Below are positions 6,106 to 54,052 of a stretch of 64,000 nt of DNA, one piece after another. Source of the stretch: a virus. Taxonomy: Duplodnaviria > Heunggongvirae > Uroviricota > Caudoviricetes. Every line of letters starts with the position of its first letter. Within the stretch, counting starts at the first letter, position 1. The position numbers were made by a program, and so were the translations under genes. Where the stretch lies: IMG/VR virus record IMGVR_UViG_3300048793_000046; one strand, given 5' to 3'. The notes beneath the pieces were generated by a model, which did no database searches, was not told the DNA's origin, and was given only the letters and a program-made list of their open reading frames with translations.

Positions 6106-8109
6106 ATGGGCTACCATAATCAACTCGTCAACTATCTGTCGTCCGCGAAGTACGGCGCTGTCACCGCGTGGGCGACCGCAGCGGCAAAGACGGTCGGCCA
6201 GATCGTGCGCCAGACCGCGCCAACGTCGGGCAACGAGCGGCTATGGCTTTGCTACGTCGCGGGCACCACGCACGCAACCACGGAGCCGACGTGGACAACT
6301 TCGCGCGGCGACAAGATCGCGACAGATGGCACTGTCTCGTGGATCGAAGTGACGGGTCTTCCCGCTGTCAACGCCGATAGCGCGAACACGCCTAACTGGA
6401 CGAACGGCGCTAAGAGCCAGTTCAACAATCAGGGTCACCTCATCAAAGACGTGGCTGGCACGCACTATTTTATCTGTACGACCAACGGGACCGGGGGCTC
6501 TGGCGCGGAGCCGACATGGAACACCGCCGCTCTCGGTAACACGACTGTCGATAACGGCGCGACGTGGACCTACATCGGTCTTGTCTCGTCATTCTCTACG
6601 CACTGGGGCGCACCTCACGCGACCATCACTCTCGCCACCAATAACAACTGGATGGAAAACGCGGGAGCGGGTCAAGCGCGTCGAACAATTTTTCTTGGTC
6701 ACGATCACGCGGAGAGCCGTTCGAGCAACTTTATCGGTCTCAATACTGCCAACTACACCAACAATCTGAATAACGGCAACTCGCTGGATATAGTTTGCGT
6801 GAGCACGGCGGGCAGCGTCCCTCCAGTCTCCGCCGACCTGTCCACGGCGGGCGCGATCACCACGACCGGCTCAAACGGTATCGCCATTGCTGGCGGCACC
6901 TACCGATGGGTCTACGGCATCACCTTCACGGCGGGCACCTCAGCGAACATCTCGATTGATTTTTCAGGCGAAAACAGCGACCGCTTCTTTGAGAATTGCG
7001 TGTTTGCTCTCGGGGCCGGTACCGGCTCGGGCGCGAACATGAACTTCAACGGCAGTTGCGGACGCCAGCACTTCAAAGGCTGCACGTTCACGTTCTCGAA
7101 TACCGGCCATAACTTCGGCGGCGGTCGCGTCAATTGCGAGTTCGACAACTGCACCTTCAACGGCAGTTCGCCAACGGTCAATGGTTTGTTCCTCGGCTCC
7201 GCTGGCGGATATGCGATCTTCCGCAATTGCGATTTCAGTGCGTGGACAAATGCGATCTTCCACTCGGGCACCAGCAACGTCAACTCGACCTTCATCTTCC
7301 GCGACTGCAAGATGCCGACAGGTTGGACGCCCGGCGACAATTTCGCCAACGGCGTAACCAACACTTCCGAAACTCTCATCTTCTCCCGCTGCAACACGGC
7401 GGGCGTCGCCAATCAGTGGCAGTTCTGGCAGAACGATGGCGCGGGCAACAACATACAGGCCGACAATCTTACTGCTCGTGTAGGCGGCTTGGCAGACGCG
7501 GGAACGCCGGTCTCGTGGAGGGTCACAACCAAAACCAACGTCACGATGAACTCGTCAGATGCAAGGCCACCGATGCTTGCGGAGTGGAACCCCGTGACTG
7601 GGGCCAACGTAACGGCGACCATCTTCGGTGTCATCAACGCCGCCGCGCTGCCGACCAACGACTACTGCTTCTTTGATATCGATTATCTCGGCAACTCGGA
7701 TACCCTCGGCGTTCGCAAGTCCTCGCGCATCGCCGACTATCTCGCGACGCCCGCCGCTGTTACAGCGGACACGTCGGACTGGACCACCGGAGCGGTCGCG
7801 GCTCGGCAGAACACGCATACCTATGCAGTCGGCGACGCGATCAAACTCGCGAGCAACGCGGGCCGCATTTTCTTCTGCACGGCCTCTTCGGGCAACACGG
7901 CGGGCAGCGAGCCCGGCGGCTACGCCTCTGCGGTTGACGGTGGCTCTGTCACGGACGGCTCCGCCACTTTCTGCGCGGGCATGAGGTTCAAGATGGCTGT
8001 CACACTGACGAGCCCGCAACCGCAACTGGCGGGCAACGTCTATGCTCAGATCAGGTTCGGTGCGCCCTCTGTCATAATCTATTTCGACCCGTCCTTGATC
8101 CTGACCTGA
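6106..8109 (+). CDS. tailspike/tail-fibre protein with right-handed parallel beta-helix (pectate-lyase-like) repeats
   Basis: repeated FxNCxF / NCTFNGS / FRNCDF / FRDCKM coils typical of beta-helix depolymerase folds; Gly/Thr/Asn-rich. Confidence 0.55.
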   Translation: MGYHNQLVNYLSSAKYGAVTAWATAAAKTVGQIVRQTAPTSGNERLWLCYVAGTTHATTEPTWTTSRGDKIATDGTVSWIEVTGLPAVNADSANTPNWTNGAKSQFNNQGHLIKDVAGTHYFICTTNGTGGSGAEPTWNTAALGNTTVDNGATWTYIGLVSSFSTHWGAPHATITLATNNNWMENAGAGQARRTIFLGHDHAESRSSNFIGLNTANYTNNLNNGNSLDIVCVSTAGSVPPVSADLSTAGAITTTGSNGIAIAGGTYRWVYGITFTAGTSANISIDFSGENSDRFFENCVFALGAGTGSGANMNFNGSCGRQHFKGCTFTFSNTGHNFGGGRVNCEFDNCTFNGSSPTVNGLFLGSAGGYAIFRNCDFSAWTNAIFHSGTSNVNSTFIFRDCKMPTGWTPGDNFANGVTNTSETLIFSRCNTAGVANQWQFWQNDGAGNNIQADNLTARVGGLADAGTPVSWRVTTKTNVTMNSSDARPPMLAEWNPVTGANVTATIFGVINAAALPTNDYCFFDIDYLGNSDTLGVRKSSRIADYLATPAAVTADTSDWTTGAVAARQNTHTYAVGDAIKLASNAGRIFFCTASSGNTAGSEPGGYASAVDGGSVTDGSATFCAGMRFKMAVTLTSPQPQLAGNVYAQIRFGAPSVIIYFDPSLILT

Positions 8110-8119
8110 GCATCGCCTG

Positions 8120-8674
8120 ATGGCTAACAACAAGTCCACGCTGATCACGGGGGGACTTATGTCCCCGTATTCTACCGTCCTCCTTTCGGATGACGGTACG
8201 AAGCGTGTGACTATAGTTGATGGCGTCGCGATCAATCAAGTCTCTGGCGGCGGAGTGTGGGCATCTACCGAAGCGCCCGATGTGATGGCCCTCATCGGCT
8301 ACCCGGGTTTCCCCGGCACGTTCGGCGATCTCGCCTCTACTGAGAGCGCGGACATCTTCGCGGCGGCAGGCTATCCGAACATCATCGGATTTTTAGTCGC
8401 GAGTGAAGCCCCGGATATCTTCTCAGCGTTCGGACGGCAACCGCTCTCTGGCGCTCTTGCGGCGACTGAGAGCCCGGATATTTTCGCTGCGACCGGCACC
8501 GGGCAGGGCGTGAACGGCACTTGGGTTTCAACGGAGGGGGTTGACACGTTAACCATGATAGGGAATACTCCCATCGCCGGTACGTGGGCATCCACCGAAG
8601 CCGCTGATCGATTTTCTGCAATTGGCGCTGGCGTCACTCGGGTTCGCCGTCGTCGCACTTTCTTCGCAACCTGA
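8120..8674 (+). CDS. repeat protein with six tandem ~21-aa units (wASTEaPDiFaAxG)
   Basis: repeats STEAPDVMALIGYPG / STESADIFAAAGYPN / ASEAPDIFSAFG / ATESPDIFAATG / STEGVDTLTMIGN / STEAADRFSAIGAG. Confidence 0.45.
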   Translation: MANNKSTLITGGLMSPYSTVLLSDDGTKRVTIVDGVAINQVSGGGVWASTEAPDVMALIGYPGFPGTFGDLASTESADIFAAAGYPNIIGFLVASEAPDIFSAFGRQPLSGALAATESPDIFAATGTGQGVNGTWVSTEGVDTLTMIGNTPIAGTWASTEAADRFSAIGAGVTRVRRRRTFFAT

Positions 8675-8687
8675 TCAGGAGGCTCAC

Positions 8688-9065
8688 ATGGGCGTCGTCT
8701 ACAATACCACGCTAAAAAACACGCGGATGACCAGCGTCGTCACCGCTATCGGCACTGCCGGGTTTCTCAACATCTACACCGCCGGTCTTGCCCTGTTGCT
8801 CGCAACTGTTCCGCTGCCCAACCCGGCGGGCACCGTCACGGGCGGCGTTCTGACTTTCTCGGGCATGCCACTGACCGAGGCGTCGGCGAATGCATCCGGT
8901 ACAGCGGCGGCGGCGACCGTCTCGACCGCTACCGGCGGCACCGGCACCGTGGTCGTCTCGGGCTTGACTGTGTCGTCCACTTCGGGTGACATCGTGCTGT
9001 CTTCGACGAACATCGTCGCGGGTCAGCCGTTCACGATCACCTCGGGCTCGATCACGCACGGCTAA
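8688..9065 (+). CDS. Ala/Thr/Gly-rich fibre-like protein (125 aa)
   Basis: start moved to the ATG at 8688, which has an AGGAGG RBS at 8676-8681; upstream ORF ends 8674. Confidence 0.4.
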   Translation: MGVVYNTTLKNTRMTSVVTAIGTAGFLNIYTAGLALLLATVPLPNPAGTVTGGVLTFSGMPLTEASANASGTAAAATVSTATGGTGTVVVSGLTVSSTSGDIVLSSTNIVAGQPFTITSGSITHG

Positions 9066-19669: not shown

Positions 19670-20078
19670 GATGCAGCTTGAAGAAACCGAATTTCGAAAA
19701 GTAGTCCGGCTTCTGTGTCATGAGCAGGATCATCTGCCCGTCGCGTTTTCCGATCTCGTCAATGCGCCACTCGACAAGCGCCTTGCCCGCGCCGCTACCC
19801 TGATAAGTCGGGTGCACAGCAATCCAGATCAGATTGAACGCGCCCTTCATCAGCATCGAAGGTCCGAACGCGGCGAAGCCGATTGGCGTCGGAGTGTAAT
19901 CTCGCGAGAGCGGATCACCAAGGTCCATAATCCCGAACGTCGGCGCGAAGTGCCCGCCTCGGAAATACTCGACCATCTGGAGATGACAGCGGTCGGCGGC
20001 TTCGATGCCCCAGTTCTCCAAGACAAGCCCGGAGCAGAACTCGATCTCTCTGTACTTCGGTTCGCGAATGAACATCAC
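19614..20078 (-). CDS. GNAT family N-acetyltransferase
   Basis: AVHPTYQGSGAGKALVEWRI is the acetyl-CoA binding motif A. Confidence 0.65.
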   Translation of the reverse strand: MMFIREPKYREIEFCSGLVLENWGIEAADRCHLQMVEYFRGGHFAPTFGIMDLGDPLSRDYTPTPIGFAAFGPSMLMKGAFNLIWIAVHPTYQGSGAGKALVEWRIDEIGKRDGQMILLMTQKPDYFSKFGFFKLHHVGNEWYLMLKLLKTVEM

Positions 20079-20611
20079 TTGTCCCTGTGACGATAGCGAG
20101 GAATACCCGCCGCCTCTTTGATCGCATCGGCGAACTTGTCGTTCGGACCGCGTGGGTCCTTCGGCTGTTGAAGCTGTTCGTGTCGCGTCGGTTCGAAATT
20201 GTTTCTGATCTCGTCGTCAATCCGCTCGGCAAGCAACAGCACCGAAAGCTTCGGGACGATCATGACTGTATTGGCGCTCTCAGTCATCATGAGATTGATT
20301 TTGTCCTCGCCTTCGAACAAACGGAAGTCTGTGCGATAGACGATGATGGCTTTGTCTGTGCCATAGCCGTAGCCCAGTTCCCAGCACGTGCCGCTGTCCG
20401 GGTCCGGCCCGTCGAGATTGGCAAGAACCAACTGAGCCCAGTCGATGCCTGTCTTGTCAGATTTGAAAATCAGATCAGGCCGGTCGGCGTGATGCTGGCG
20501 CTCTTGCGGAAGAAAAACTTCGTGACCATGAAGTCGAAGCGCCTCTGCGAGAGCGAGATTGAAATCGCACTCGGCTGTTGAGAACAGCGGGCCTGCCATA
20601 TAGATACGCAT
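20075..20611 (-). CDS. nucleoside 2-deoxyribosyltransferase-like protein
   Basis: MRIYMAGPLFSTAECDFNLALAEALRLHGHEVFLPQ matches the NDT/Rcl family N-terminus. Confidence 0.6.
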   Translation of the reverse strand: MRIYMAGPLFSTAECDFNLALAEALRLHGHEVFLPQERQHHADRPDLIFKSDKTGIDWAQLVLANLDGPDPDSGTCWELGYGYGTDKAIIVYRTDFRLFEGEDKINLMMTESANTVMIVPKLSVLLLAERIDDEIRNNFEPTRHEQLQQPKDPRGPNDKFADAIKEAAGIPRYRHRDK

Positions 20612-23562: not shown

Positions 23563-24003
23563 TCATGCGCTTCCGACGCTTGACGCGCGTATGTTTGCTT
23601 CGATGAGCACGTTGTCCAAATCTTTTTTGGATGCGAGCCGTGCGGCGGCGATCTCGCGGTTCTTGGCGATCACCTCTTCATCCCAGAGCGGCAGTCCGGC
23701 GGCCTCGCGCGCTTTGAGCGATGTCTCCAGATGTGCAAAAGCGCGCCACGCGAGTTTTCCCTCGTGAAGCGCGCCATCGTCAGGGTCGAACGTTCCGGTC
23801 TCGATCACGTGACGCACGATGCAGTCAGGATGATCCATCGACTTGCCTTCTGCCCAGTGAAGCGCCTCACCGGGGTTATGTTTTTCGTTGCCGAGTACGG
23901 AAATGCGCGCAACATACGCGGCAGCGTGCGGAAAGTATTTCAAGAAGCCGGTATAGATCGGGGCCTCTTTTCGAAGCTTGCTATCGGTCGGAAGCAAGGA
24001 CAT
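23563..24003 (-). CDS. dATP/dGTP pyrophosphohydrolase-domain-like protein (phage nucleotide pyrophosphatase family)
   Basis: KEAPIYTGFLKYFPHAAAYVARISVLGNEKHNPGEALHW..HPDCIVRH pattern as in phage DUF5664-type proteins. Confidence 0.4.
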   Translation of the reverse strand: MSLLPTDSKLRKEAPIYTGFLKYFPHAAAYVARISVLGNEKHNPGEALHWAEGKSMDHPDCIVRHVIETGTFDPDDGALHEGKLAWRAFAHLETSLKAREAAGLPLWDEEVIAKNREIAAARLASKKDLDNVLIEANIRASSVGSA

Positions 24004-24081
24004 GGGGGCGGCTCCCAGATATGGTTAATGCAGGGTGTGGCCTACACGAACTCTGGGGCTATTGCAAGGGGGTTGGGCAAA

Positions 24082-24121
24082 CGAAAAACGCCGCCCGGGG
24101 TGTAATCCAGAGCGGCGTTTT
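24082..24121. terminator. bidirectional hairpin terminator at the 3' end of the minus-strand tRNA array
   Basis: AAAACGCCGCCCGGGGTGTAATCCAGAGCGGCGTTTT hairpin with T-runs in both orientations. Confidence 0.5.
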
Positions 24122-24274
24122 AGGGACGCGGGTGCCTCCAATGTCGGCAGTGAGCGAAACGCATAATTGACCCTAGCTCAAAGATTAGTCGCGGAGCCCG
24201 GGGTCATACAAACGCTGCGGCTCCGCGCGACATTTGAGTAAGATACGCACATCCGGCGATCTCTGTCAAGATGG

Positions 24275-24347
24275 CATGAGTGGAAGGAGTTGAACCCTCG
24301 CTGGCACGGTTTTGGAGACCGGCGTGCTACCGTAACACTTCACTCAT
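24275..24347 (-). tRNA. tRNA-Trp (anticodon CCA), CCA not encoded
   Basis: 7-bp acceptor ATGAGTG/CACTCAT, T-arm GAGGG-TTCAACT-CCTTC, anticodon loop CTCCAAA. Confidence 0.55.
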
Positions 24348-24350
24348 AAA

Positions 24351-24427
24351 TGGTACTGCCTTAGCGATTTGAACGCCATCCCATCGGTTCACAGCCGACG
24401 TGCTCATTGCCATCGAGCATAGGCAGC
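24351..24427 (-). tRNA. tRNA-His (anticodon GTG), no G-1, A73, G1:U72; CCA encoded
   Basis: acceptor GCTGCCT/AGGCAGT, canonical T-arm TTCAAAT, anticodon loop CTGTGAA. Confidence 0.55.
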
Positions 24428-24428
24428 A

Positions 24429-24499
24429 TGGTCGCGCACCACGGTTACGATCCGGGCTGACAGCCGTATGAAAGCTATTTCCTCACCAGAGGGAGCGCG
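24429..24499 (-). tRNA. tRNA-like element, anticodon unresolved
   Basis: tgg followed by 6/7 acceptor complementarity and a cacgg-ttacgat-ccggg arm; fold not resolved by hand. Confidence 0.25.
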
Positions 24500-24504
24500 T
24501 TTAT

Positions 24505-24575
24505 TGGCAGCCGCTTTCGGTGTCGAACCGAACTCTTCAAGCTTCAAAGGCTCGTCGGGTCCCGGACCAGCGGCA
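24505..24575 (-). tRNA. tRNA-Gln (anticodon TTG), short D-region
   Basis: T-arm ttcgg-tgtcgaa-ccgaa, anticodon hairpin reading codon CAA, 1:72 unpaired. Confidence 0.4.
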
Positions 24576-24583
24576 AAAATAAT

Positions 24584-24658
24584 TGGCCCTGCTTCCGGGT
24601 GCTGCCCCCGGTTTTCCCGCTTGAAAGGCGGGGCTCTTAGCTGATGGAGGAAAGCAGG
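24584..24658 (-). tRNA. tRNA-Glu (anticodon TTC) with non-canonical T-loop GGCAGCA
   Basis: perfect acceptor cctgctt/aagcagg, perfect anticodon stem cccgc/gcggg, loop reads codon GAA; CCA encoded. Confidence 0.45.
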
Positions 24659-24659
24659 T

Positions 24660-24734
24660 TGGAGCGAGCACGGGGACTTGAACCCCGACCGCAACGCTTG
24701 GAAGGCGCGCGTGCTGCATTGACACTATGCTCGC
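24660..24734 (-). tRNA. tRNA-Gly (anticodon TCC), tentative
   Basis: perfect acceptor gcgagca/tgctcgc, canonical T-arm cgggg-acttgaa-ccccg, loop reads GGA. Confidence 0.45.
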
Positions 24735-24738
24735 AGAT

Positions 24739-24827
24739 TGGCGGAAAGACGGGGACTTGAACCCCGAAGCGGCTTACACCGCCGACAGTTTAGCAAACTG
24801 TTCGTTTGACCATTCACGCATCTTTCC
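24739..24827 (-). tRNA. tRNA-Ser (anticodon GCT), type II with long variable arm
   Basis: perfect acceptor, canonical T-arm, anticodon hairpin acagt-ttagcaa-actgt, variable-arm hairpin gcgg/ccgc; 86 nt. Confidence 0.6.
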
Positions 24828-24831
24828 AAGT

Positions 24832-24909
24832 TGGTCTTGCCGCGAGGACTTGAACCCCGACAACAGTCGTTTAGGAAACGACGGCTCTTTCCAGTTGAGC
24901 TACGGCAAG
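24832..24909 (-). tRNA. tRNA-Arg (anticodon CCT)
   Basis: perfect acceptor cttgccg/cggcaag, anticodon hairpin gtcgt-ttaggaa-acgac, D-stem gctc/gagc. Confidence 0.6.
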
Positions 24910-24914
24910 GAGAT

Positions 24915-24996
24915 TGGTGATCCGGGCAGGATTTGAACCCGCGTTTGCAGCGCCGCTACGGATAATCGCTTAGAAGACGAAACCGGCTACCGGACC
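24915..24996 (-). tRNA. tRNA-like element (79 nt), anticodon unresolved (possibly TCT)
   Basis: CCA, acceptor ggtccgg/ccggatc with G:U, T-arm gcagg-atttgaa-cccgc; internal fold unclear. Confidence 0.3.
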
Positions 24997-25000
24997 CTAA

Positions 25001-25075
25001 TGGAGACGTGCGGGCGAGTTGAACGCCCCTAGCATCGCTTTGCAGGCGAGCACATAGCCGCTCTGACAGCACGTC
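25001..25075 (-). tRNA. tRNA-Cys (anticodon GCA)
   Basis: perfect acceptor and T-arm; loop reads codon TGC; D-arm AGAGCGGCTATGT resembles the unusual E. coli tRNA-Cys D-arm. Confidence 0.6.
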
Positions 25076-25079
25076 GTAT

Positions 25080-25153
25080 TGGCAGCCCCACTCAGTGTTG
25101 ATCTGAGGTCTCGCGGTTCAGAGCCGCGCACTCTCCCGTTGAGCTATGGGGCA
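25080..25153 (-). tRNA. tRNA-Gln (anticodon CTG)
   Basis: perfect T-stem ctcag/ctgag, perfect anticodon stem cgcgg/ccgcg, loop reads CAG; 1:72 unpaired as in the other Gln. Confidence 0.5.
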
Positions 25154-25155
25154 AT

Positions 25156-25232
25156 TGGTCTGCGTAGCAGGCTTCGATCCTGCGGCCTCTCGCTTCCGGG
25201 GCGAGCACTCTTCCAGACTGAGCTATACGCAG
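25156..25232 (-). tRNA. tRNA-Pro (anticodon CGG), apparent C33
   Basis: perfect acceptor ctgcgta/tacgcag, perfect T-arm, anticodon stem ctcgc/gcgag with loop CCCGGAA. Confidence 0.45.
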
Positions 25233-25233
25233 A

Positions 25234-25315
25234 TGGTACTCGCGGCGTGGGTCGAACACGCATTTGCAACTCCATTACGGATACGACGTTCGTAGCGTCG
25301 CTCGGTTACGCGAGT
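25234..25315 (-). tRNA. tRNA-like element with perfect Arg(ACG) anticodon hairpin but aberrant D-arm/variable-region lengths
   Basis: 7/7 acceptor actcgcg/cgcgagt, canonical T-arm gcgtg-ggtcgaa-cacgc, hairpin CGACG-CTACGAA-CGTCG; spacing between elements is non-standard. Confidence 0.35.
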
Positions 25316-25329
25316 GTGAAGTGTTTGTT

Positions 25330-25403
25330 TGGGGCTGCTAGCGGGTTCTGACCCCGCGCCGCCGGTTTGAGGGACCAGCATCCTCCCATTAGACGATAGC
25401 AGC
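25330..25403 (-). tRNA. tRNA-Glu (anticodon CTC), tentative; apparent C33 and T-loop GTCAGAA
   Basis: perfect acceptor gctgcta/tagcagc and T-stem gcggg/cccgc; anticodon loop CCCTCAA. Confidence 0.35.
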
Positions 25404-25407
25404 GTTT

Positions 25408-25482
25408 TGGCTCCCGCAGCACGTTTCGAACGTGCCTTCTCCGATTAACAGTCGGACGCCCTCACCGAGATGGCTCTACGGG
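25408..25482 (-). tRNA. tRNA-Asn (anticodon GTT)
   Basis: canonical T-arm gcacg-tttcgaa-cgtgc, perfect anticodon hairpin tccga-ttaacag-tcgga. Confidence 0.6.
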
Positions 25483-25490
25483 AATAAAAA

Positions 25491-25565
25491 TGGTGGACCT
25501 TCACGGTTACGATCCGTGTCTCCCGCATTGCAAGTGCGGTGTGCTCCCATTATCACTAAAGGCCC
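25491..25565 (-). tRNA. tRNA-Ala (anticodon TGC) with G3:U70; T-loop ATCGTAA
   Basis: perfect anticodon hairpin ccgca-ttgcaag-tgcgg; acceptor GGGCCTT/AAGGTCC gives the G3:U70 identity pair; CCA encoded. Confidence 0.6.
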
Positions 25566-25566
25566 G

Positions 25567-25641
25567 TGGTGCCTAGTCACGGTTTCGATCCGCGCTCTCC
25601 TGCTCTTCACGCAGGCGCTTTCCCAGATTAGCTTACTAGGC
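25567..25641 (-). tRNA. tRNA-Phe (anticodon GAA), tentative
   Basis: perfect acceptor gcctagt/actaggc, perfect anticodon stem cctgc/gcagg, loop reads TTC. Confidence 0.5.
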
Positions 25642-25644
25642 AAT

Positions 25645-25718
25645 TGGTGCGGACAGGGAGAGTTGAACTCCCGCTACTTCGTTGGCAACGAAGCCGACTT
25701 CCGTAATCATTTGTCCGC
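25645..25718 (-). tRNA. tRNA-Gly (anticodon GCC)
   Basis: perfect acceptor, T-arm gggag-agttgaa-ctccc, anticodon hairpin cttcg-ttggcaa-cgaag. Confidence 0.6.
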
Positions 25719-25724
25719 ATTTTT

Positions 25725-25810
25725 TGGTGCTCCATCGAGGTAACGATCCTCGCCAGCCCGAAGGCATCTGTTTTACAGACAGCGCGGCGTCCTTAGCCAC
25801 CTACTGGAGC
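25725..25810 (-). tRNA. tRNA-Tyr (anticodon GTA), type II
   Basis: perfect T-arm cgagg-taacgat-cctcg, long variable arm gcc..ggc, loop tttacag reads TAC; 5' acceptor boundary uncertain. Confidence 0.4.
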
Positions 25811-25814
25811 GTAT

Positions 25815-25891
25815 TGGTTGCGCAGGTTGGAATTGAACCAACAATAAATCAGCTTATGAGGCTGACTAGCCTACCAAGGCTTGTCCGCGCG
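25815..25891 (-). tRNA. tRNA-Met (anticodon CAT; initiator, elongator or Ile2 not distinguishable)
   Basis: perfect T-arm gttgg-aattgaa-ccaac, perfect anticodon hairpin tcagc-ttatgag-gctga; possible 1:72 mismatch. Confidence 0.45.
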
Positions 25892-25901
25892 ATAGAAGAA
25901 T

Positions 25902-25990
25902 TGGCGGAGGGCGGGTAGATTTGAACTCCATGCCTTTCGGCACCCTCGGTTTTCAGGACCGCGACAGAACCCCGTCTGCTTCTGCCCTCC
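25902..25990 (-). tRNA. type II tRNA-like, possibly tRNA-Ser (anticodon TGA); imperfect T-stem
   Basis: 7/7 acceptor ggagggc/gccctcc, variable-arm hairpin, anticodon hairpin cggt-tttcagg-accg; 86 nt. Confidence 0.35.
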
Positions 25991-25994
25991 ATTT

Positions 25995-26070
25995 GGTGAT
26001 CTCCCGGGGAGTTGAACCCCGATCTCCGAGTTTCGGAAACTCGCGCTCTGTCCAGTTGAGCTAAGAGACC
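25995..26070 (-). tRNA. tRNA-Arg (anticodon CCG)
   Basis: canonical T-arm cgggg-agttgaa-ccccg, perfect anticodon hairpin cgagt-ttcggaa-actcg, D-stem gctc/gagc with GG in loop; CCA encoded. Confidence 0.6.
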
Positions 26071-26074
26071 TTTT

Positions 26075-26551
26075 TTATTTCATGCCTTTGCGTCTGACAT
26101 TGCCGCGCCGATCATAAGCTCCAGTGGGCCAAAAACAATCCATCGTGACGCGAGCGATCAAACCATCATCTGTGAACACCGCCGGTCCCTTGAGAGTTTT
26201 GCCGTCTACCGCCTGTTCGAATGCAAGATAGCTTCCGCCGCGATCAGGAGACGCTGGATCAACGAAAAACAAATCCAAGTCCGTAGGCTCATCCAACGGG
26301 ACCGGCACTCCAGCGGCCTTGCACGCCTCAAAGAGAGCGGTTCGGTATCGCTGTATCACCGCGAGATGCATCCGACGATGCGGCGCGTGATGGATCGATA
26401 GCCGCAACAGGGCTGGGAATTGATCGGGAAAGTATTTGACGATGATCTTCATTTCAAAGTCCTTTGGTGGGCCGCTCCGGTTACGATCCGGATCAAGGAA
26501 CAGCCGTCCGCTGCTAAAGAGCTTATAAGGCTCTCCCGTGTCCAACACCAC
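26075..26551 (-). CDS. hypothetical protein (158 aa) embedded between the two tRNA blocks; weak RusA-like resemblance (DLD..DDG)
   Basis: ORF flanked by tRNAs on the same strand. Confidence 0.35.
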   Translation of the reverse strand: MVLDTGEPYKLFSSGRLFLDPDRNRSGPPKDFEMKIIVKYFPDQFPALLRLSIHHAPHRRMHLAVIQRYRTALFEACKAAGVPVPLDEPTDLDLFFVDPASPDRGGSYLAFEQAVDGKTLKGPAVFTDDGLIARVTMDCFWPTGAYDRRGNVRRKGMK

Positions 26552-26561
26552 AGCCCATTTC

Positions 26562-26635
26562 TGGTCTCCGCACGGAGTTCCGCCTTCCGGCCTCCGCCTT
26601 CCAAGGGCGGCGCTCTTCTCACGAGCTTTGCAGAG
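26562..26635 (-). tRNA. tRNA-Pro (anticodon TGG) with GG-containing T-loop GGCGGAA and a GG-less D-loop
   Basis: perfect anticodon hairpin ccgcc-ttccaag-ggcgg, D-stem gctc/gagc, acceptor with one G:U. Confidence 0.45.
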
Positions 26636-26640
26636 CTAAC

Positions 26641-26714
26641 TGGCGCGGCTAGGGAGTATCGATCTCCCGTCATTCGGTTGACAACCGAGCGCTCTACCTT
26701 TGAACTATAGCCGC
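26641..26714 (-). tRNA. tRNA-Asp (anticodon GTC)
   Basis: perfect acceptor gcggcta/tagccgc, perfect T-arm gggag-tatcgat-ctccc, loop ttgacaa reads GAC. Confidence 0.55.
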
Positions 26715-26721
26715 AAAAATT

Positions 26722-26796
26722 TGGTGGGCTCCCACGGTAACGATCCGTGTTCTCATGGGTTAAGAGGCCAGCGCACTACCTTTGTGCTAGGAGCCC
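26722..26796 (-). tRNA. tRNA-Lys (anticodon CTT), weak anticodon stem, T-loop ATCGTTA
   Basis: perfect acceptor GGGCTCC, D-stem GCAC/GTGC, anticodon loop CTCTTAA with only 3 central base pairs. Confidence 0.4.
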
Positions 26797-26797
26797 T

Positions 26798-26872
26798 TGG
26801 TGGACCGCCCCGGTACTGCCCCGGGTTCTTACGGGTTAAAAGGCCGACGTGCTACTTTCCTACTCGCGGTCC
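26798..26872 (-). tRNA. tRNA-Lys (anticodon TTT), weak anticodon stem, T-loop GGCAGTA
   Basis: perfect acceptor ggaccgc/gcggtcc, perfect T-stem cccgg/ccggg, loop CTTTTAA. Confidence 0.4.
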
Positions 26873-26874
26873 GA

Positions 26875-27060
26875 TCAGGACTGCGACGGTTTCAGTGTAG
26901 CCTCAACGCACACCACGATCTGTCCCGTTGCAGGGATGTGATGCACGATCTGGCGCTTCATCTTGAAACGTGTATCGCCCACAGCGCAGAGCGGGCACTT
27001 TTCTGTATCTTGCATGCTCGTCTCCTGTTGTGTTGGTTGACCCTGCTGGTTTCGATCCAA
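26875..27060 (-). CDS. small Cys-containing protein (61 aa, CPLC motif)
   Basis: short ORF inside the tRNA block. Confidence 0.25.
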   Translation of the reverse strand: MDRNQQGQPTQQETSMQDTEKCPLCAVGDTRFKMKRQIVHHIPATGQIVVCVEATLKPSQS

Positions 27061-27108
27061 CTTTCCACGGTTATCGACCGCGTGCCTTAGCCACTAGACG
27101 AAGGGTCA
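27034..27108 (-). tRNA. tRNA-Ile (anticodon GAT), tentative; apparent C33
   Basis: perfect acceptor tgaccct/agggtca, T-arm gctgg-tttcgat-ccaac, anticodon loop TCGATAA. Confidence 0.4.
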
Positions 27109-27112
27109 GTGA

Positions 27113-27187
27113 TGGTGCGTCTTGCAGGGGATGATCCTGCCGCCTCTCGCATGTCGAGCGAGCGCTCTTCCGCTGAGCTAAAGACGC
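27113..27187 (-). tRNA. tRNA-Val (anticodon GAC), tentative; apparent C33
   Basis: perfect acceptor gcgtctt/aagacgc, perfect T-stem gcagg/cctgc, anticodon stem ctcgc/gcgag with loop TCGACAT. Confidence 0.4.
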
Positions 27188-27192
27188 GGAAT

Positions 27193-27274
27193 TGGTCGGA
27201 GGGGTATTTCTACACCCGGAGCGCGTACTGGTCCCCCGCCCTTTCGGGCGAGCCAACGCCATCTCTACCCTCCG
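27193..27274 (-). tRNA. tRNA-like element (79 nt), unresolved internal fold
   Basis: CCA plus perfect 7-bp acceptor cggaggg/ccctccg; G-rich interior with CCC-GAAA-GGG hairpin. Confidence 0.3.
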
Positions 27275-27305
27275 CCGGGCCTGCCTCGTTGCGCTTGCGC
27301 GCGAT

Positions 27306-27380
27306 TGGTACTCCCTCCCGGGATCGAGCCGGGTCATGTCGGTGTGTAGGACCGATGCCTTCCCATCTGGCGCAGGGAGC
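27306..27380 (-). tRNA. tRNA-Val (anticodon TAC), tentative; apparent C33
   Basis: perfect T-arm cccgg-gatcgag-ccggg, perfect anticodon stem tcggt/accga with loop CCTACAC. Confidence 0.4.
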
Positions 27381-27381
27381 G

Positions 27382-27457
27382 TGGTGTGAATGTCGGGAGT
27401 TGAACCCGAAAGGCACGGGGTTTAAGCCCTGCCGCGTTTCCGCTTCGCCACACTCAC
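27382..27457 (-). tRNA. tRNA-like element with TTA/TAA triplet in a 6-7 nt anticodon loop (class I length)
   Basis: CCA, acceptor gtgagtg/cattcac, canonical T-arm tcggg-agttgaa-cccga; stem cgggg/ccctg closes a tttaag loop. Confidence 0.3.
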
Positions 27458-27458
27458 T

Positions 27459-27534
27459 TGGTGTCGGTCGCGGGAGTTGAACCCGCAAGAGTTGGCTTTT
27501 GAGACCACCCATGTTTCCACTTCACCAGACCGAC
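27459..27534 (-). tRNA. tRNA-like element, anticodon unresolved (CAA-like loop CTCAAAA)
   Basis: perfect acceptor gtcggtc/gaccgac and canonical T-arm gcggg-agttgaa-cccgc. Confidence 0.35.
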
Positions 27535-27539
27535 AAAAT

Positions 27540-27622
27540 TGGTACCCCCGGGGAGACTTGAACTCCCAATCCTTTCGGCGCTAGTTTCTAAGACTAGTGC
27601 GTATGCATTCCGCCACGGGGGC
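27540..27622 (-). tRNA. tRNA-Leu (anticodon TAG), type II
   Basis: canonical T-arm gggag-acttgaa-ctccc, perfect anticodon hairpin ctagt-ttctaag-actag, long variable region; 80 nt. Confidence 0.55.
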
Positions 27623-27623
27623 G

Positions 27624-27697
27624 TGGTGCTCTCTGATGGTTACAATCCATCGTCGGCCCCTTACCAAAGGGCAATTCTGTCATTGAACTAAGAGAGC
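27624..27697 (-). tRNA. tRNA-Thr (anticodon GGT); T-loop ATTGTAA lacks C56
   Basis: perfect acceptor gctctct/agagagc, perfect T-stem gatgg/ccatc, loop ttaccaa reads ACC. Confidence 0.5.
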
Positions 27698-27701
27698 GAA
27701 T

Positions 27702-27776
27702 TGGAGCCGATTGCAGGAATTAAACCCGCGACATCCGCGCTACAAGGGCGGCGTTCTATCACTGAACTAAATCGGC
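27702..27776 (-). tRNA. tRNA-Thr (anticodon TGT)
   Basis: perfect acceptor gccgatt/aatcggc, D-stem gttc/gaac, loop ctacaag reads ACA. Confidence 0.5.
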
Positions 27777-27778
27777 AA

Positions 27779-27852
27779 TGGTGCTGGTTAGGTAAATCGA
27801 ATACCTGTTTGCGCCTTACGAGGGGGCTGTTCTGCCACTGAACTAAACCAGC
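27779..27852 (-). tRNA. tRNA-Thr (anticodon CGT)
   Basis: perfect acceptor gctggtt/aaccagc, canonical T-arm aggta-aatcgaa-tacct, loop ttacgag reads ACG. Confidence 0.55.
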
Positions 27853-43578: not shown

Positions 43579-43941
43579 TCAGGGTTGGCAGGGAAACGTC
43601 ACCGGCATGCGACTGTTGCTCGATATCTGCAACCACGCCTCGGTTTCGTTCTTGAAGACTTCCGGGCAGCGCTTGTTCTGCCAGAGCGGGCTGCCGCTCA
43701 TCTCGGTTACATCATCCCATTCATCATCCGCGCCGGTCAGTGGCGTGAGGGAGCGATGATTGGCGAGCCGGACGAACGTATCAAGCGTTTGCCTCGCACT
43801 GCCGCCGGAATGGCCATAAGCGCAGAACGTCTCCATCAGCGCGGTGACTTGCACGCCGATCTCGCCATTGTAGTCGCTGTCATCGTCGAACAGGCCAGCG
43901 GCGCGCAGTTCGGATTTGGCATGCTGGAGCAAGCTTGTCAT
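43579..43941 (-). CDS. hypothetical protein (120 aa)
   Basis: ORF only. Confidence 0.35.
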   Translation of the reverse strand: MTSLLQHAKSELRAAGLFDDDSDYNGEIGVQVTALMETFCAYGHSGGSARQTLDTFVRLANHRSLTPLTGADDEWDDVTEMSGSPLWQNKRCPEVFKNETEAWLQISSNSRMPVTFPCQP

Positions 43942-49978: not shown

Positions 49979-50444
49979 CATCATAGTCGGTCAGCGTAAG
50001 ATCGCGAGGCTGACACATCGGACAAGGCTTTGGCCACGTGAAATTCGTGGATAGGCGGCGAGTGGATGACCAGTCAGTGACGGTTCTGAATGATACGACG
50101 GACTGCGGTCAGACCCGGGGGCAGTACCCGGCACCTCCACCATGGTCGGCGCGAAGTGACATGGATGTCATTCGCCATAGAGCGAGCTACCCAGCGTGGA
50201 GCACGCGCCGACTTTGACGGGGGTGAAACAGGATCGATGGACGCTCGGAAAGTCGTAAAGTGAACTCGGTATTGTTCCGCCGTTATCGGGCTACAAACTA
50301 AATGTGAACGACAACGTTCCCATGAACGAAATGCGCCTCGCGGCGTAAGTAGTTCGGGGCCGGTCACCTAGCAACAGAACGACCAAACGAAACGCCCGGG
50401 CAGTGATGCCCGGGCGTTTTTGTTTTTCAGTTGGCCGCCGAGAT

Positions 50445-53335: not shown

Positions 53336-54052
53336 TCAGCCATTGTTCCAGTGGCTCCATACTTGCCACGCTTGCACGATGCAATCGTACACGGGCTCAT
53401 GCGGCACGCCCGTCCCGGGCGGATCGACATCGCCGATAGGTGCGATGCGCGTCGCTGGCGTCTCGCGCACAAACGTCCGCATGTCGCGCGGCGCTTGATA
53501 GTGCCAAAGATCGGGCTGCCCGTCCTCGCCTAATTGTCGATTGAGTTCGACGAGATTAGACAGATCGAATTGATTACCATTCGCCCAGACGCGAGATTTT
53601 CCGTCACAGAACATCTGAACCATACGACATACGGAAGCAAGGTTCGTGCGTCCGGTGTCGGCGTCCATCCAATGAGCTTGAGCTTCGCGCTTTTGGCCTT
53701 TCCACCACGCTTGCGTGCCAACACTGACTTCGCGACCGAGCAAGAGTTGCTGTTCGATATTGGGCAGGATGAGTGACCGCGCGCCGACCTTCAATAGCCC
53801 AACGCCTGCCTGCTCTTGCGCGCCAGTCGGATCGAACTCAATCATGCCGATGGAAAGAATGAGCGCATTGTTGGGGCTCAGCGACATGGTTTCGATATCG
53901 ATCATCACATGATCGAACTCGGGCGCTTTGATATCAGAAAGGGATGTCGTCGCCATTATCAATCCTCGGGCGCTGATGGCTCTCGGCGCGGCGTCGCACG
54001 ATAGCGATGCTGGACGAAAAGCCGGGGACCATATCATTGTAGGTCGCGTCAA
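53336..54052 (-). CDS. DEDD-family 3'-5' exonuclease (DnaQ-like)
   Basis: Exo I HVMIDIETMSL, later acidic motifs consistent with the DEDD fold. Confidence 0.5.
   Translation of the reverse strand: MTRPTMIWSPAFRPASLSCDAAPRAISARGLIMATTSLSDIKAPEFDHVMIDIETMSLSPNNALILSIGMIEFDPTGAQEQAGVGLLKVGARSLILPNIEQQLLLGREVSVGTQAWWKGQKREAQAHWMDADTGRTNLASVCRMVQMFCDGKSRVWANGNQFDLSNLVELNRQLGEDGQPDLWHYQAPRDMRTFVRETPATRIAPIGDVDPPGTGVPHEPVYDCIVQAWQVWSHWNNG

Follow-up and report, generated by a model that had tools for sequence, protein, structure and literature searches.

A mobile array of 36 tRNA genes with conserved non-canonical members in a phage genome

The 64-kb window (the whole 64,000-nt stretch of viral DNA that was analysed) contains a real, mobile tRNA array, a conclusion that is close to certain. 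The array is a genuine, densely packed minus-strand operon of 36 tRNA genes at 24272-27852 that ends at an intrinsic terminator, covers 20 amino acids with 35 distinct anticodons and encodes CCA in all 36 genes; an earlier note on this DNA had likewise counted about 36 genes for nominally all 20 amino acids, and had understated the CCA ends as being present in most. In particular, the spacers are no longer than 12 nt at 31 of the 35 gaps, with a median of 4 nt, in keeping with the large, dense array and the 0-8 nt spacing described before, and the interruptions are two ORFs and one tRNA-like remnant. The array sits within a minus-strand block of replication and nucleotide-metabolism genes; the window's family A DNA polymerase, DUF2800 exonuclease, primase-polymerase, SNF2 helicase and structural genes confirm that the DNA is from a phage, with a GC content of 58%. 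The size of the array is not exceptional, and the claim that it is unusual even for large phages goes too far: viral clusters described in the literature range from 15 to 37 tRNA genes, with all 20 isotypes present in eight clusters (PMC6409571), and cluster C1 mycobacteriophages average 33, with Rizal carrying 36 (PMC10264068), the same number as here.

With default settings, ARAGORN finds 27 tRNAs in the 64-kb window, all on the minus strand at 24272-27852, where the array had been placed, and none outside these bounds. The RF00005 gathering score is passed by 20 tRNAs in a whole-window scan and by 24 once smaller scans are added (contributing Pro-CGG, Asn, Val-TAC and Arg-TCT), so that both programs recover far more than a handful of genes. 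Relaxed ARAGORN runs add Glu-CTC, the CAT gene at 24429-24499, Arg-TCT, Arg-ACG and Val-TAC. Overall, 27 genes are supported by default ARAGORN, four more by Rfam, two by relaxed ARAGORN plus homology, and three by comparative covariation only. These last three, Glu-TTC, Pro-TGG and Lys-TTT, are tRNA-sized slots missed by ARAGORN and Rfam; related arrays have homologous tRNAs at the same positions, and the cloverleaf pairing covaries.

The first part of the array runs from 27852 to 26465 (all features are on the minus strand; bit scores are from RF00005 and, unless stated otherwise, accompany an ARAGORN call). It begins with Thr(CGT) (27779-27852; default ARAGORN, 59.2 bits), Thr(TGT) (27702-27776; 57.2 bits) and Thr(GGT) with T-loop ATTGTAA (27624-27697; 46.1 bits), followed by an 83-nt Leu(TAG) with a long variable arm (27540-27622; 53.0 bits), which is 99% identical to its copy in L060, the closest phage relative. 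The 76-nt Leu(CAA) (27459-27534; 45.9 bits) has a short variable arm, unlike the usual bacterial class II form, and short-arm Leu tRNAs are the norm across the array family. Leu(TAA) (27382-27457; 43.1 bits) is homologous to them and its slot is missing in L060; ARAGORN labels it '???' with a 6-nt loop, while the Rfam alignment gives a 7-nt loop, CUUAAAC, and a bulged A in the stem. Val(TAC), with T-loop CTCGATC (27306-27380; ARAGORN -ps90, 37.5 bits), has compensatory acceptor changes relative to L060. The next 118 nt (27188-27305) are a spacer with a tRNA-like 3′ end, an acceptor-like CGGAGGG/CCCTCCG and then ACCA, for which there is no ARAGORN call down to ps60 and no Rfam match; it is 29% identical to L060, varies from 3 to 132 nt in relatives, and is probably a tRNA remnant, left out of the gene count. 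Val(GAC) (27113-27187; 53.3 bits) and Ile(GAT) (27034-27108; 40.8 bits) precede a 46-aa ORF with a CxxC motif, read from the sequence at 26875-27015, which has a weak rubredoxin-like match (E 0.033) and a called 53-aa gene at its position in L060. The part closes with the non-canonical Lys(TTT) (26798-26872; homologue covariation), Lys(CTT) with T-loop ATCGTTA (26722-26796; 44.8 bits), Asp(GTC) (26641-26714; 59.5 bits), the non-canonical Pro(TGG) (26562-26635; homologue covariation) and a 92-nt Ile(TAT) with a long variable arm (26465-26556; default ARAGORN). The block previously taken to start at 26562 therefore starts at 26465, and the array has three Leu, two Ile and two CAT genes rather than one each of Leu, Ile and Met.

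Embedded between the two parts is ORF125 (26075-26452), a conserved protein of 125 aa whose fold is RusA-like. The second part opens with a canonical Arg(CCG) (25994-26070; 54.5 bits) and an 89-nt class II Ser(TGA) (25902-25990; ARAGORN -ps80), which matches the Rfam tRNA-Sec model at 43.5 bits, under its cut-off, and whose L060 copy is 92% identical yet has the anticodon CGA. Met(CAT) (25815-25891; ARAGORN, Sec-model match of 35.2 bits) reads with a C1-A72 mismatch, as in initiator tRNAs. There follow a class II Tyr(GTA) with T-loop ATCGTTA (25725-25810; default ARAGORN), 83% identical to L060, Gly(GCC) (25645-25718; 49.3 bits), Phe(GAA) with T-loop ATCGAAA (25567-25641; 45.7 bits), Ala(TGC) with T-loop ATCGTAA (25491-25565; 44.1 bits), Asn(GTT) (25408-25483; 42.9 bits), Glu(CTC) with T-loop GTCAGAA (25330-25403; 43.7 bits, ARAGORN -ps), the non-canonical Arg(ACG) (25234-25315; ARAGORN -ps90/-ps80 only, with slot and loop match), Pro(CGG) (25156-25232; 55.0 bits), Gln(CTG) (25080-25153; 50.8 bits) and Cys(GCA) (25001-25075; default ARAGORN, no Rfam report). 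The remaining genes are a D-hairpin-less Arg(TCT) (24915-24996; 29.9 bits, ARAGORN -ps90), a canonical Arg(CCT) (24832-24909; 51.3 bits), a class II Ser(GCT) (24739-24827; 54.6 bits), Gly(TCC) (24660-24734; 46.1 bits), Glu(TTC) with a non-canonical elbow (24584-24658; RNAalifold of slot homologues), a 71-nt Gln(TTG) with a reduced D arm (24505-24575; default ARAGORN), which is 100% identical in L060, a 71-nt tRNA(CAT) of Met or Ile2 type with a 4-nt D-loop (24429-24499; ARAGORN -ps90), whose slot is kept, with stems that covary, in 10 or more arrays, His(GTG) (24351-24427; default ARAGORN) and, as the last gene, Trp(CCA) (24272-24347; 46.5 bits).

Some conserved members of the array have unusual structures and are overlooked by standard gene finders. 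Three of them, Lys, Pro and Glu, have GGCRGNA T-loops in common. In Lys(TTT), the T-loop GGCAGTA is combined with an invariant D region, GAGTAGGAAAGTAGCAC, and a 3-bp anticodon stem; among 15 distinct homologues, pairing holds in 87.8% of cells and eight pairs have both sides changed. Pro(TGG) has the T-loop GGCGGAA and a D-loop, GTGAGAA, that lacks GG, and across nine homologues 96.3% of cells are paired, with both sides changed in 33 cells. For each of these two tRNAs, the covariation score is reached by none of 500 shuffles. Glu(TTC) has the D-loop CAGCTA and the T-loop GGCAGCA; RNAalifold on 12 slot homologues returns a cloverleaf in which 17 of the 21 pairs show compensation, and the elbow is identical in L003 and L004 while the stems differ. 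The variable-arm stem of Ile(TAT) also covaries (CAGC/GCTG, CACC/GGTG and CCCC/GGGG in the window, L039 and L053), and most relatives have a 76-nt CAT tRNA in this slot.

The clearest conserved non-canonical members are the Arg tRNAs without a D hairpin, a class present in at least 120 further viral contigs and missed or mislabelled in cultured Streptomyces phages. Arg(ACG) has an 8-nt 5′ connector and a 22-nt segment 3′ of the anticodon arm with GTAATGGA; its anticodon is inconsistent between the ARAGORN -ps90 and -ps80 runs, while its loop, CTACGAA, and its slot agree with the Arg(ACG) of relatives, and covariation is class-wide. Arg(TCT) has the same architecture and is 94% identical in L060. 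Its bracket helix covaries (CGG:CCG, CCG:CGG, CAG:CTG and CGA:TCG). All of the odd forms retain a 7-bp acceptor, an anticodon loop of 7 nt with T33 and purine 37, and an encoded CCA, and the odd members carry compensatory changes between the window and L060. These changes, together with the covariation for Lys-UUU, Pro-UGG, Glu-UUC and the Arg class, indicate that the odd members are under selection.

The window's array is one representative of a long tRNA array that moves horizontally and is of the L-array, or tRNA array unit, type. Gene order around ORF125 is conserved in 4 IMG/VR loci, 40 metagenome loci and 4 genome loci, and is kept down to about 40% ORF125 identity: Thr-Thr-Thr-Leu-Leu-Leu-Val-Val-Ile-Lys-Lys-Asp-Pro-Ile/Met, the RusA-fold ORF, and then Arg-Ser-Met-Tyr-Gly-Phe-Ala-Asn-Glu-Arg-Pro-Gln-Cys-Arg-Arg-Ser-Gly-Glu-Gln-Met-His-Trp. 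One locus with a related backbone (L005; 76%, 74% and 57% identity to the window in DUF932, exonuclease and helicase) has the array-flanking genes 1.1 kb apart, without tRNAs between them; L001 and L003, in turn, have only ORF125 and the array in common with the window. In Bradyrhizobium sp. BR13661, genes for DHDPS, PdxA and Fe-ADH surround the array. The cassette is exchanged between unrelated soil phages and alphaproteobacterial chromosomes of the Bradyrhizobium type. Chromosomal arrays of this type contain a gene for the RNA-repair ligase RtcB (Pfam E down to 4e-66), and L060 has one immediately upstream of its array. Moreover, slot-by-slot identity between the window and L060 is a mosaic in which certain slots reach 97-100% while others stay at 39-55%, which implies frequent recombination between arrays. 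L-arrays have been described as spread by horizontal transfer, co-regulated with rtcB and an aid to survival under translational stress (PMC8421152).

On balance, the most likely role of the array would be to provide a pool of tRNAs that replaces those of the host or evades nucleases. The array would give a polycistronic transcript, which RNase P and 3′ trimming enzymes of the host would process, CCA addition being unnecessary since every gene encodes it; the products would supply an almost complete second set of tRNAs, with which phage translation could continue while host tRNAs are depleted or cleaved in infection. The non-canonical bodies may evade tRNA-directed nucleases and yet be charged, candidates being the D-hairpin-less Arg, the Lys, Pro and Glu tRNAs with GGCRGNA T-loops, the long-arm Ile-UAU and the short-arm Leu. 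The phage also encodes the Thoeris inhibitor Tad3 (E 4e-30), and so invests in counter-defence. Published work proposes, and in some instances shows, that phage tRNAs counter tRNA-cleaving defences (PMC10264068). Several observations count against a replacement pool: 12 of the 36 genes stay below the RF00005 cut-off in every scan, three are supported by comparative evidence only, no sigma-70-like promoter is found upstream of 27852, the 64-kb window has no RtcB, and L-arrays are reported to be poorly transcribed in some bacteria (PMC8421152). Further, relatives have Leu-GAG and Leu-CAG genes that are missing here, which leaves CTC, the most-used Leu codon, with neither a cognate nor a standard-wobble reader, and the set is therefore not fully self-sufficient.

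Codon usage offers a second, unlikely explanation, in which the array compensates for codons commoner in the phage than in a GC-richer host, or extends host range. Bradyrhizobium-type hosts are GC-richer than this phage, and the array does have tRNAs for A/T-ending or rare codons (the rare ATA, TTA, CTA, AGA, AGG and GTA among them, and AAA, GAA and CAA). However, of the 18 amino acids with more than one codon, 15 also have a Watson-Crick cognate for their preferred codon, and some very common codons, including CTC, GCC, GCG and CGC, have none; in all, 60% of phage codons are read by Watson-Crick cognates and 87% with standard wobble. Since preferred and rare codons are served alike, the strong codon-usage compensation proposed in the earlier note fits poorly. 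The same cassette occurs in unrelated phage backbones and host-type chromosomes, which argues that it is not tuned to this genome, and a published analysis of mycobacteriophages with 33 tRNAs found no codon signal (PMC10264068).

It is more doubtful still that the array is a largely selfish or cryptic cassette that persists by spreading and adds little to infection. Its patchy distribution across backbones, the slot mosaic and the nuclease-fold ORF embedded in every case would fit such a cassette, as do reports of L-arrays as cryptic and associated with homing endonucleases (PMC8421152); by analogy with the homing endonucleases that aid other tRNA clusters, the RusA-fold nuclease possibly aids its spread. 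Against this, purifying selection acts strongly in every slot, the odd ones included, on cloverleaf pairing, anticodons and CCA; order is retained in diverged arrays, and the RtcB association is functional in nature. Partial decay, with about a dozen low scorers as pseudogenes and a functional set nearer 24-27 genes, is very improbable: the 12 low-scoring members, the three invisible to both programs and the remnant would suit it, but the odd forms recur in many diverged arrays, with invariant loops, compensated stems and their core tRNA features intact, and the Arg class is present in at least 120 further viral contigs.

At the 3′ end of the array, the terminator scan and the MFE fold confirm the hairpin terminator described earlier: an intrinsic-terminator-like hairpin at 24082-24121, with a long GC-rich stem followed by UUUUU. 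The 150 nt from the last tRNA to the terminator (24122-24271) form a structured trailer by fold statistics; the fold of 24070-24271, terminator hairpin included, has z = -3.09, and none of 200 shuffles is as stable. The trailer also contains a promoter-like TTGACA-18-TATCTT at 24269-24240.

The minus strand between positions 24272 and 27852 of the window contains 36 tRNA genes with 35 distinct anticodons that together serve all 20 amino acids, so that the earlier note's description of an array of about 36 genes covering 20 amino acids was essentially right. With default settings on the 64 kb, ARAGORN identified 27 tRNA genes, all within these bounds and on the minus strand; relaxed settings added Glu-CTC, a 71-nt CAT tRNA, Arg-TCT, Arg-ACG and Val-TAC, and three more tRNA-sized slots (positions in the conserved gene order), seen by neither ARAGORN nor Rfam, were resolved by comparison with related arrays. 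The whole-window Rfam scan placed 20 array tRNAs at or above the RF00005 gathering cut-off of 29 bits, and smaller scans raised the total to 24 of 36 by adding Pro-CGG (55.0 bits), Asn (42.9 bits), Val-TAC (37.5 bits) and Arg-TCT (29.9 bits). The other 12 genes scored below the cut-off in every scan (His, Gln-TTG, Cys, Tyr, Ile-TAT, Met, Met2, Ser-TGA, Arg-ACG, Glu-TTC, Pro-TGG and Lys-TTT), and 7 of them are ARAGORN default calls. All 36 genes encode CCA, their median spacer is 4 nt, and we hold with very high confidence that this is a real tRNA array. At 36 genes in 3,581 bp, or about 10 per kb, it falls within the definition of a viral tRNA gene cluster, which calls for 15 or more tRNA genes and 2 or more per kb (Morgado and Vicente 2019, PMC6409571).

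The array sits in a long run of minus-strand genes and is interrupted by a 125-aa gene, ORF125 (26075-26452, minus strand), and by a 46-aa CxxC ORF (26875-27015, minus strand). It also holds a 118-nt tRNA-like remnant (27188-27305), which was rejected as a 37th tRNA, having no ARAGORN or Rfam support and no conservation. Two candidate selenocysteine tRNAs, at 25906-25990 and 25818-25892, were likewise rejected, as their scores on the tRNA-Sec model were below its cut-off and their anticodons are TGA (Ser) and CAT; Ser-TGA, whose 3′ end is taken as 25902 in the final gene table, reached 43.5 bits on that model. The element at 27382-27457, returned by ARAGORN as '???' (Stop/Leu), was considered as an ochre suppressor or a tRNA with a 6-nt loop; the suppressor reading was dismissed because in the Rfam alignment the loop counts 7 nt (CUUAAAC) and an A is bulged, and because short-arm Leu tRNAs are homologues of the element, a short variable arm (76-77 nt in total length) being the norm among Leu tRNAs of the array family. 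Past the array, a strong hairpin followed by a U-run forms a terminator at about 24121-24082, and the 150 nt between it and tRNA-Trp (24122-24271, minus strand) are structured (z = -3.09 for the fold of 24070-24271, terminator included) and start with a promoter-like TTGACA-18-TATCTT. This trailer may act as a small RNA or serve in processing or stability. A promoter scan found no sigma-70 promoter 5′ of the array.

Related arrays were located with ORF125 as the anchor, which has homologues in 4 IMG/VR, 40 metagenome and 4 genome contigs. In all 38 contigs scanned (4 IMG/VR, 30 metagenome and 4 genome), the tRNA isotypes occur in the same order on both sides of ORF125, and this order holds even where ORF125 identity has fallen to 37-55%; the best-preserved related arrays have 34 ARAGORN default calls. 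Orthologous slots were too diverged for blastn-short and were therefore assigned by positional anchoring. The array-bearing contigs of 65-120 kb are considered phages because of their sizes and their membership in IMG/VR. The same module is also present on a contig (360 kb) from a cultured strain, Bradyrhizobium sp. BR13661, where its neighbours are ordinary metabolic genes (DHDPS, PdxA and Fe-ADH), and on contigs of 283 kb, 485 kb and 1.06 Mb from MAGs or metagenomes. Moreover, an RtcB RNA ligase is encoded within both the BR13661 and the 1.06-Mb arrays and directly upstream of the array in L060, the closest phage relative (a 119.8-kb contig from an NCBI assembly with 92% ORF125 identity). 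Within or beside related arrays, RtcB genes occupy 6118-7476 of L060, 6336-7673 of locus L027 and 7513-8850 of locus L056; none was found within the 64 kb of the window.

The distribution of the module is patchy. The contig L005 has a backbone related to that of the window (DUF932, exonuclease and helicase are 76%, 74% and 57% identical), and its array-flanking genes are merely 1.1 kb apart with the tRNAs absent; in contrast, the contigs L001 and L003 have only ORF125 and the array in common with the window. A slot-by-slot comparison of the window with L060 (8500-12500) shows a further mosaic: Thr-TGT, Leu-TAG and Gln-TTG are near-identical (97-100%), whereas Pro-CGG, Ala, Arg-CCT, Gly-GCC, Phe and Cys have essentially been replaced (39-55%), and the Ser slot has the anticodon TGA in the window and CGA in L060 at 92% identity. 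From these sequence comparisons, the mosaicism suggests cassette-like exchange between arrays. Together, the patchy presence, the chromosomal copies and the mosaic slot identities indicate that the array is a horizontally moving cassette that recombines slot by slot. Searches of deposited phages (INPHARED) and plasmids (PLSDB) found no ORF125, and no syntenic array was found in deposited phages; a close cultured relative was sought there by megablast and distant blastn, which returned only scattered single-tRNA DNA matches. An exact copy of the window's ORF125 was absent from the protein collection searched. Among cultured phages the nearest is Roseobacter phage RDJL3, which gives the best match to the window's polymerase at only 43% identity.

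ORF125 itself is treated as a RusA-fold protein and is probably a structure-specific nuclease, which may act in cassette mobility, in recombination or in a tRNA-related process. A membership test assigned it to the RusA fold, and among its homologues D70, D83, D95 and D96 are invariant and D58 is nearly so, aspartates that were considered as candidates for a catalytic triad. At the sequence level, neither Pfam, its RusA family included, nor PHROG gave a hit at E ≤ 0.1, the hhalign comparison with E. coli RusA was not significant (probability 1%), and a PDB profile search found nothing. Its fixed site inside a tRNA array is unlike that of known RusA genes.

Several array tRNAs depart from the canonical body, and the most notable new architecture is a widespread, mis-annotated tRNA-Arg that has no D hairpin. 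In the window, the class comprises Arg-ACG (25234-25315, minus strand) and Arg-TCT (24915-24996, minus strand), in both of which the acceptor stem is separated from the anticodon stem by only 8 nt; 3′ of the anticodon arm, a 22-nt segment bears a D-loop-like GTAAYGGA or GTAGCGGA motif. Across arrays, the D-hairpin-less Arg tRNAs carry the anticodons ACG, TCT, CCT and TCG, and the same slots elsewhere hold canonical Arg tRNAs. An independent RNAalifold prediction (n = 30) pairs the 5′ connector with the start of the 3′ segment: column 12-39 is C-G in 28 of 30, column 13-38 is CG in 15, GC in 14 and AU in 1, and column 14-37 is GC in 11, UA in 5 and AU in 2. In the same set pairing is complete (100%) in the acceptor and T stems, with a covariation score that none of 500 shuffles matched. 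The class is modelled as a three-helix tRNA in which an extension of the anticodon helix would stand in place of the D stem, and in which the AACUGGA motif, resembling A14-A20, would have moved 3′ of the anticodon arm. For E. coli ArgRS, the chief identity element is A20. A second half of this helix, pairing columns 10-11 with columns 49-50, fits the array-family alignment, fails in the wider IMG/VR set, and was rejected.

The Arg class extends far beyond the array family, as at least 120 IMG/VR contigs match its pattern of anticodon loop plus relocated motif, and only 4 of the 120 matches listed have ORF125. All 120 of the matches listed have perfect anticodon stems, and 86 of them, representing 44 distinct sequences, show the full architecture with NCCA tails and canonical T-loops under strict criteria; the loci among the matches listed range from 26% to 61% GC and have a median of 15.5 other tRNAs. 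Homologues are also present in cultured phages of Streptomyces (~131 kb) and of Microbacterium (~192 kb), in Xanthomonas phage XacN1, and in a Bradyrhizobium-type chromosome (contig L025). Most of those in cultured phages are unannotated. For example, positions 91367-91442 of Streptomyces phage Mildred21 (MF155946.1; 401-476 of our locus L182) are labelled tRNA-Phe(gaa) in the record, and the site has the D-hairpin-less Arg architecture with the loop CTTCGAA, which gives the anticodon UCG and thus Arg; in Braelyn and other sister phages the site is unannotated. An HNH endonuclease gene lies just upstream of the site. Standard tRNA finders therefore undercount phage repertoires, as shown by the 27 of 36 genes called here by default ARAGORN and by the Streptomyces Arg copy labelled tRNA-Phe. 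The literature searched in full text and the 2020 review of non-canonical tRNAs contain no description of D-hairpin-less tRNAs from phages or bacteria.

Further, three other array tRNAs have an altered elbow. A survey of 48 loci separates canonical T-loops (TTCRANY) from an A54 class (ATCGNNA) and a G54 class (G[GT]CAGNA), the latter with ~77 instances when the commonest variants are counted. Lys-UUU (26798-26872) has the T-loop GGCAGTA and an invariant D region; over 15 distinct homologues its acceptor stem is 98% and its T stem 100% paired, 8 pairs show double-sided change, and the covariation score was matched by 0 of 500 shuffles. This class is restricted to the array family and was found in 9 IMG/VR contigs. 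Pro-UGG (26562-26635) has the T-loop GGCGGAA and a D-loop that lacks GG, its homologues are 96% paired, and again none of 500 shuffles matched the covariation score. Glu-UUC (24584-24658) has the D-loop CAGCTA and the T-loop GGCAGCA, and 17 of the 21 pairs in its RNAalifold cloverleaf are compensated. All three thus have a D-loop with no GG and a GGCRGNA T-loop in place of the canonical D hairpin with G18G19, and in Arg-ACG and Arg-TCT the D hairpin is absent altogether. In Lys-UUU, Pro-UGG, Glu-UUC and the Arg class, pairing in the acceptor and T stems is 84-100%, and many changes there are double-sided; the 7-bp acceptor stem, the 5-bp T stem and the anticodon loop of 7 nt (T33, purine 37) are kept by compensatory change, and the tRNA differences between the window and L060 are compensatory. 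These five tRNAs are tRNA-like in the parts that define function and non-canonical in the body. Lys-UUU and Glu-UUC, both among the altered members, are classic nuclease targets.

Other slots also vary in form. The 92-nt Ile-UAU has a long variable arm that covaries and occupies the slot just upstream of ORF125, where it replaces a 76-nt CAU tRNA; conservation at its own slot is also seen for the 71-nt CAU tRNA, whose D-loop has 4 nt. The family holds three CAU-type slots, namely Met(CAT), the 71-nt CAT tRNA and the Ile-UAU/CAU slot, each of which may be of initiator, elongator or Ile2 identity. Met(CAT) (25815-25891, minus strand) has the C1-A72 mismatch that is a hallmark of bacterial initiator tRNA, but its anticodon stem lacks the three G-C pairs.

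Large tRNA clusters of phages are already known, and the array adds a member to them. Published viral clusters hold 15-37 genes, with all 20 isotypes in eight of them (PMC6409571), and mycobacteriophage Rizal has 36 tRNA genes (PMC10264068). The C1 mycobacteriophages (such as Rizal and Bxz1), the ~131-kb Streptomyces phages and the phiCbK-like Caulobacter phages (survey PMC6409571) resemble it as tailed phages with dozens of tRNA genes on one strand (2-10 per kb), interspersed small ORFs or nucleases and, in some clusters, all 20 isotypes; they differ in having HNH or Seg endonucleases where the array has a RusA-fold ORF, whereas the array family has its own gene order and chromosomal copies in Alphaproteobacteria. 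The new features are the conserved order around the RusA-fold ORF, an array family common to phages and Bradyrhizobium-type chromosomes, and non-canonical tRNA architectures that are conserved.

Bacterial L-arrays, or tRNA array units (Santamaria-Gomez 2021, PMC8421152; Morgado and Vicente 2018, PMC5966550), are similarly long, same-orientation and non-periodic, and share with the array supernumerary tRNAs, spread by horizontal transfer, and links to rtcB and nucleases. The array has their layout, with every gene on the minus strand, short spacers (median 4 nt) and a non-repeating isotype order, and their mobility, being absent from the L005 backbone and present in unrelated backbones and chromosomes. 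Unlike L-arrays, the cassette is phage-borne, and one family is common to phages and chromosomes. L-arrays are described as silent in normal growth, induced under translational stress and co-regulated with rtcB (PMC8421152); the tie of the array family to rtcB is physical linkage in relatives only. No Bradyrhizobium member of the L-arrays was found in the literature searched.

The altered bodies have partial counterparts. Like type III mitochondrial tRNAs, the Arg class has no D hairpin and an extended anticodon helix, and the Lys, Pro and Glu classes resemble tRNA-Pyl in having neither G18G19 nor the T54-Psi55-C56 motif (review PMC7609411, which makes no mention of phages). Unlike tRNA-Pyl and the D-armless mitochondrial tRNA-Ser(AGY), the array classes occur in phages and bacteria, and in the Arg class both a canonical T-loop and the relocated AACUGGA are retained. 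A functional parallel may be drawn with counter-defence phage tRNAs (T5 tRNA-Lys against PARIS; tRNA-Tyr against retron PtuAB or Septu), for which escape through the anticodon loop has been hypothesized (PMC10264068): both comprise isoacceptors that deviate from the standard, and translation restoration after host tRNA cleavage is the proposed role. In contrast, the array changes lie in the body (D arm, elbow and variable arm) and not in the anticodon loop alone.

The earlier note had interpreted the array as strong codon-usage compensation or a sign of broad host range. Its interpretation is partly supported: the large phage array for 20 amino acids is borne out, and codon compensation fits poorly. 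Across 57 window ORFs, Watson-Crick cognates in the array cover 60% of codons, or 87% with standard wobble, and the preferred codon has a cognate array tRNA in 15 of 18 multi-codon amino acids. Rare codons are served as well, and common codons such as CTC, GCC, GCG and CGC have no cognate, a pattern that does not resemble compensation for particular codons. The array would instead act as a replacement or nuclease-resistant tRNA pool, and we slightly favour tRNA-pool replacement or counter-defence as its main role. This reading draws on the near-complete set with CCA in every gene, the RtcB linkage in relatives, the odd tRNA bodies under purifying selection, the Tad3 anti-defence gene in the same phage, and the published work on L-arrays (PMC8421152) and on phage tRNAs versus tRNA-cleaving defences (PMC10264068). 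A narrower proposal, that the D-hairpin-less tRNA-Arg and the elbow-altered Lys, Glu and Pro tRNAs of phage arrays form an unrecognised functional set that synthetases and ribosomes would use and immune nucleases would miss, is speculative and in our judgement rather unlikely. If it is charged and used, the D-hairpin-less tRNA-Arg would widen the structural range of bacterial-type tRNAs and could provide orthogonal scaffolds for synthetic biology. The reason for phage-borne tRNAs has been a matter of debate for some 50 years, and the array family offers a tractable case; with the cassette in uncultivated soil phages and an RtcB-linked copy in a cultured Bradyrhizobium, a backup or nuclease-resistant pool is directly testable.

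The window is a phage sequence, encoding a family A DNA polymerase, a DUF2800/PD-(D/E)XK exonuclease, a primase-polymerase, an SNF2 helicase, an Enc34-type SSB, a GH108 lysozyme and structural genes. It also has a tmRNA of the alphaproteobacterial two-piece (permuted) type at 50025-50389 (plus strand; RF01849, 132.7 bits; RF04321, 108.1 bits), a second translation-rescue element of the array-carrying phage. The permuted tmRNA type and the Bradyrhizobium copies of the array point to an alphaproteobacterial host. The Tad3-family type I Thoeris inhibitor, a recognised anti-defence gene, lies at 43579-43941 (minus strand; PF25185, E = 4.3e-30). Directly downstream of the array, an ORF at 23563-24003 (minus strand) has a dATP/dGTP diphosphohydrolase N-terminal domain (PF18909, E = 3.2e-7), a family linked to MazZ of 2-aminoadenine (Z-genome) phages; the bulk Pfam survey found no PurZ-like family among the window ORFs. 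A protein with an Rv2179c-like 3′-5′ exoribonuclease domain (53336-54052, minus strand; E = 2.4e-22) could bear on the processing of RNA or tRNA 3′ ends. Matches to the GDP-mannose 4,6-dehydratase and NAD-dependent epimerase families in 2 of 59 scanned window ORFs (best E = 1.8e-146) suggest a phage-encoded sugar-nucleotide metabolism. Finally, the ORF at 20075-20611 (minus strand) is the counterpart of an L060 gene with a nucleoside 2-deoxyribosyltransferase domain, a family present among the window ORFs.
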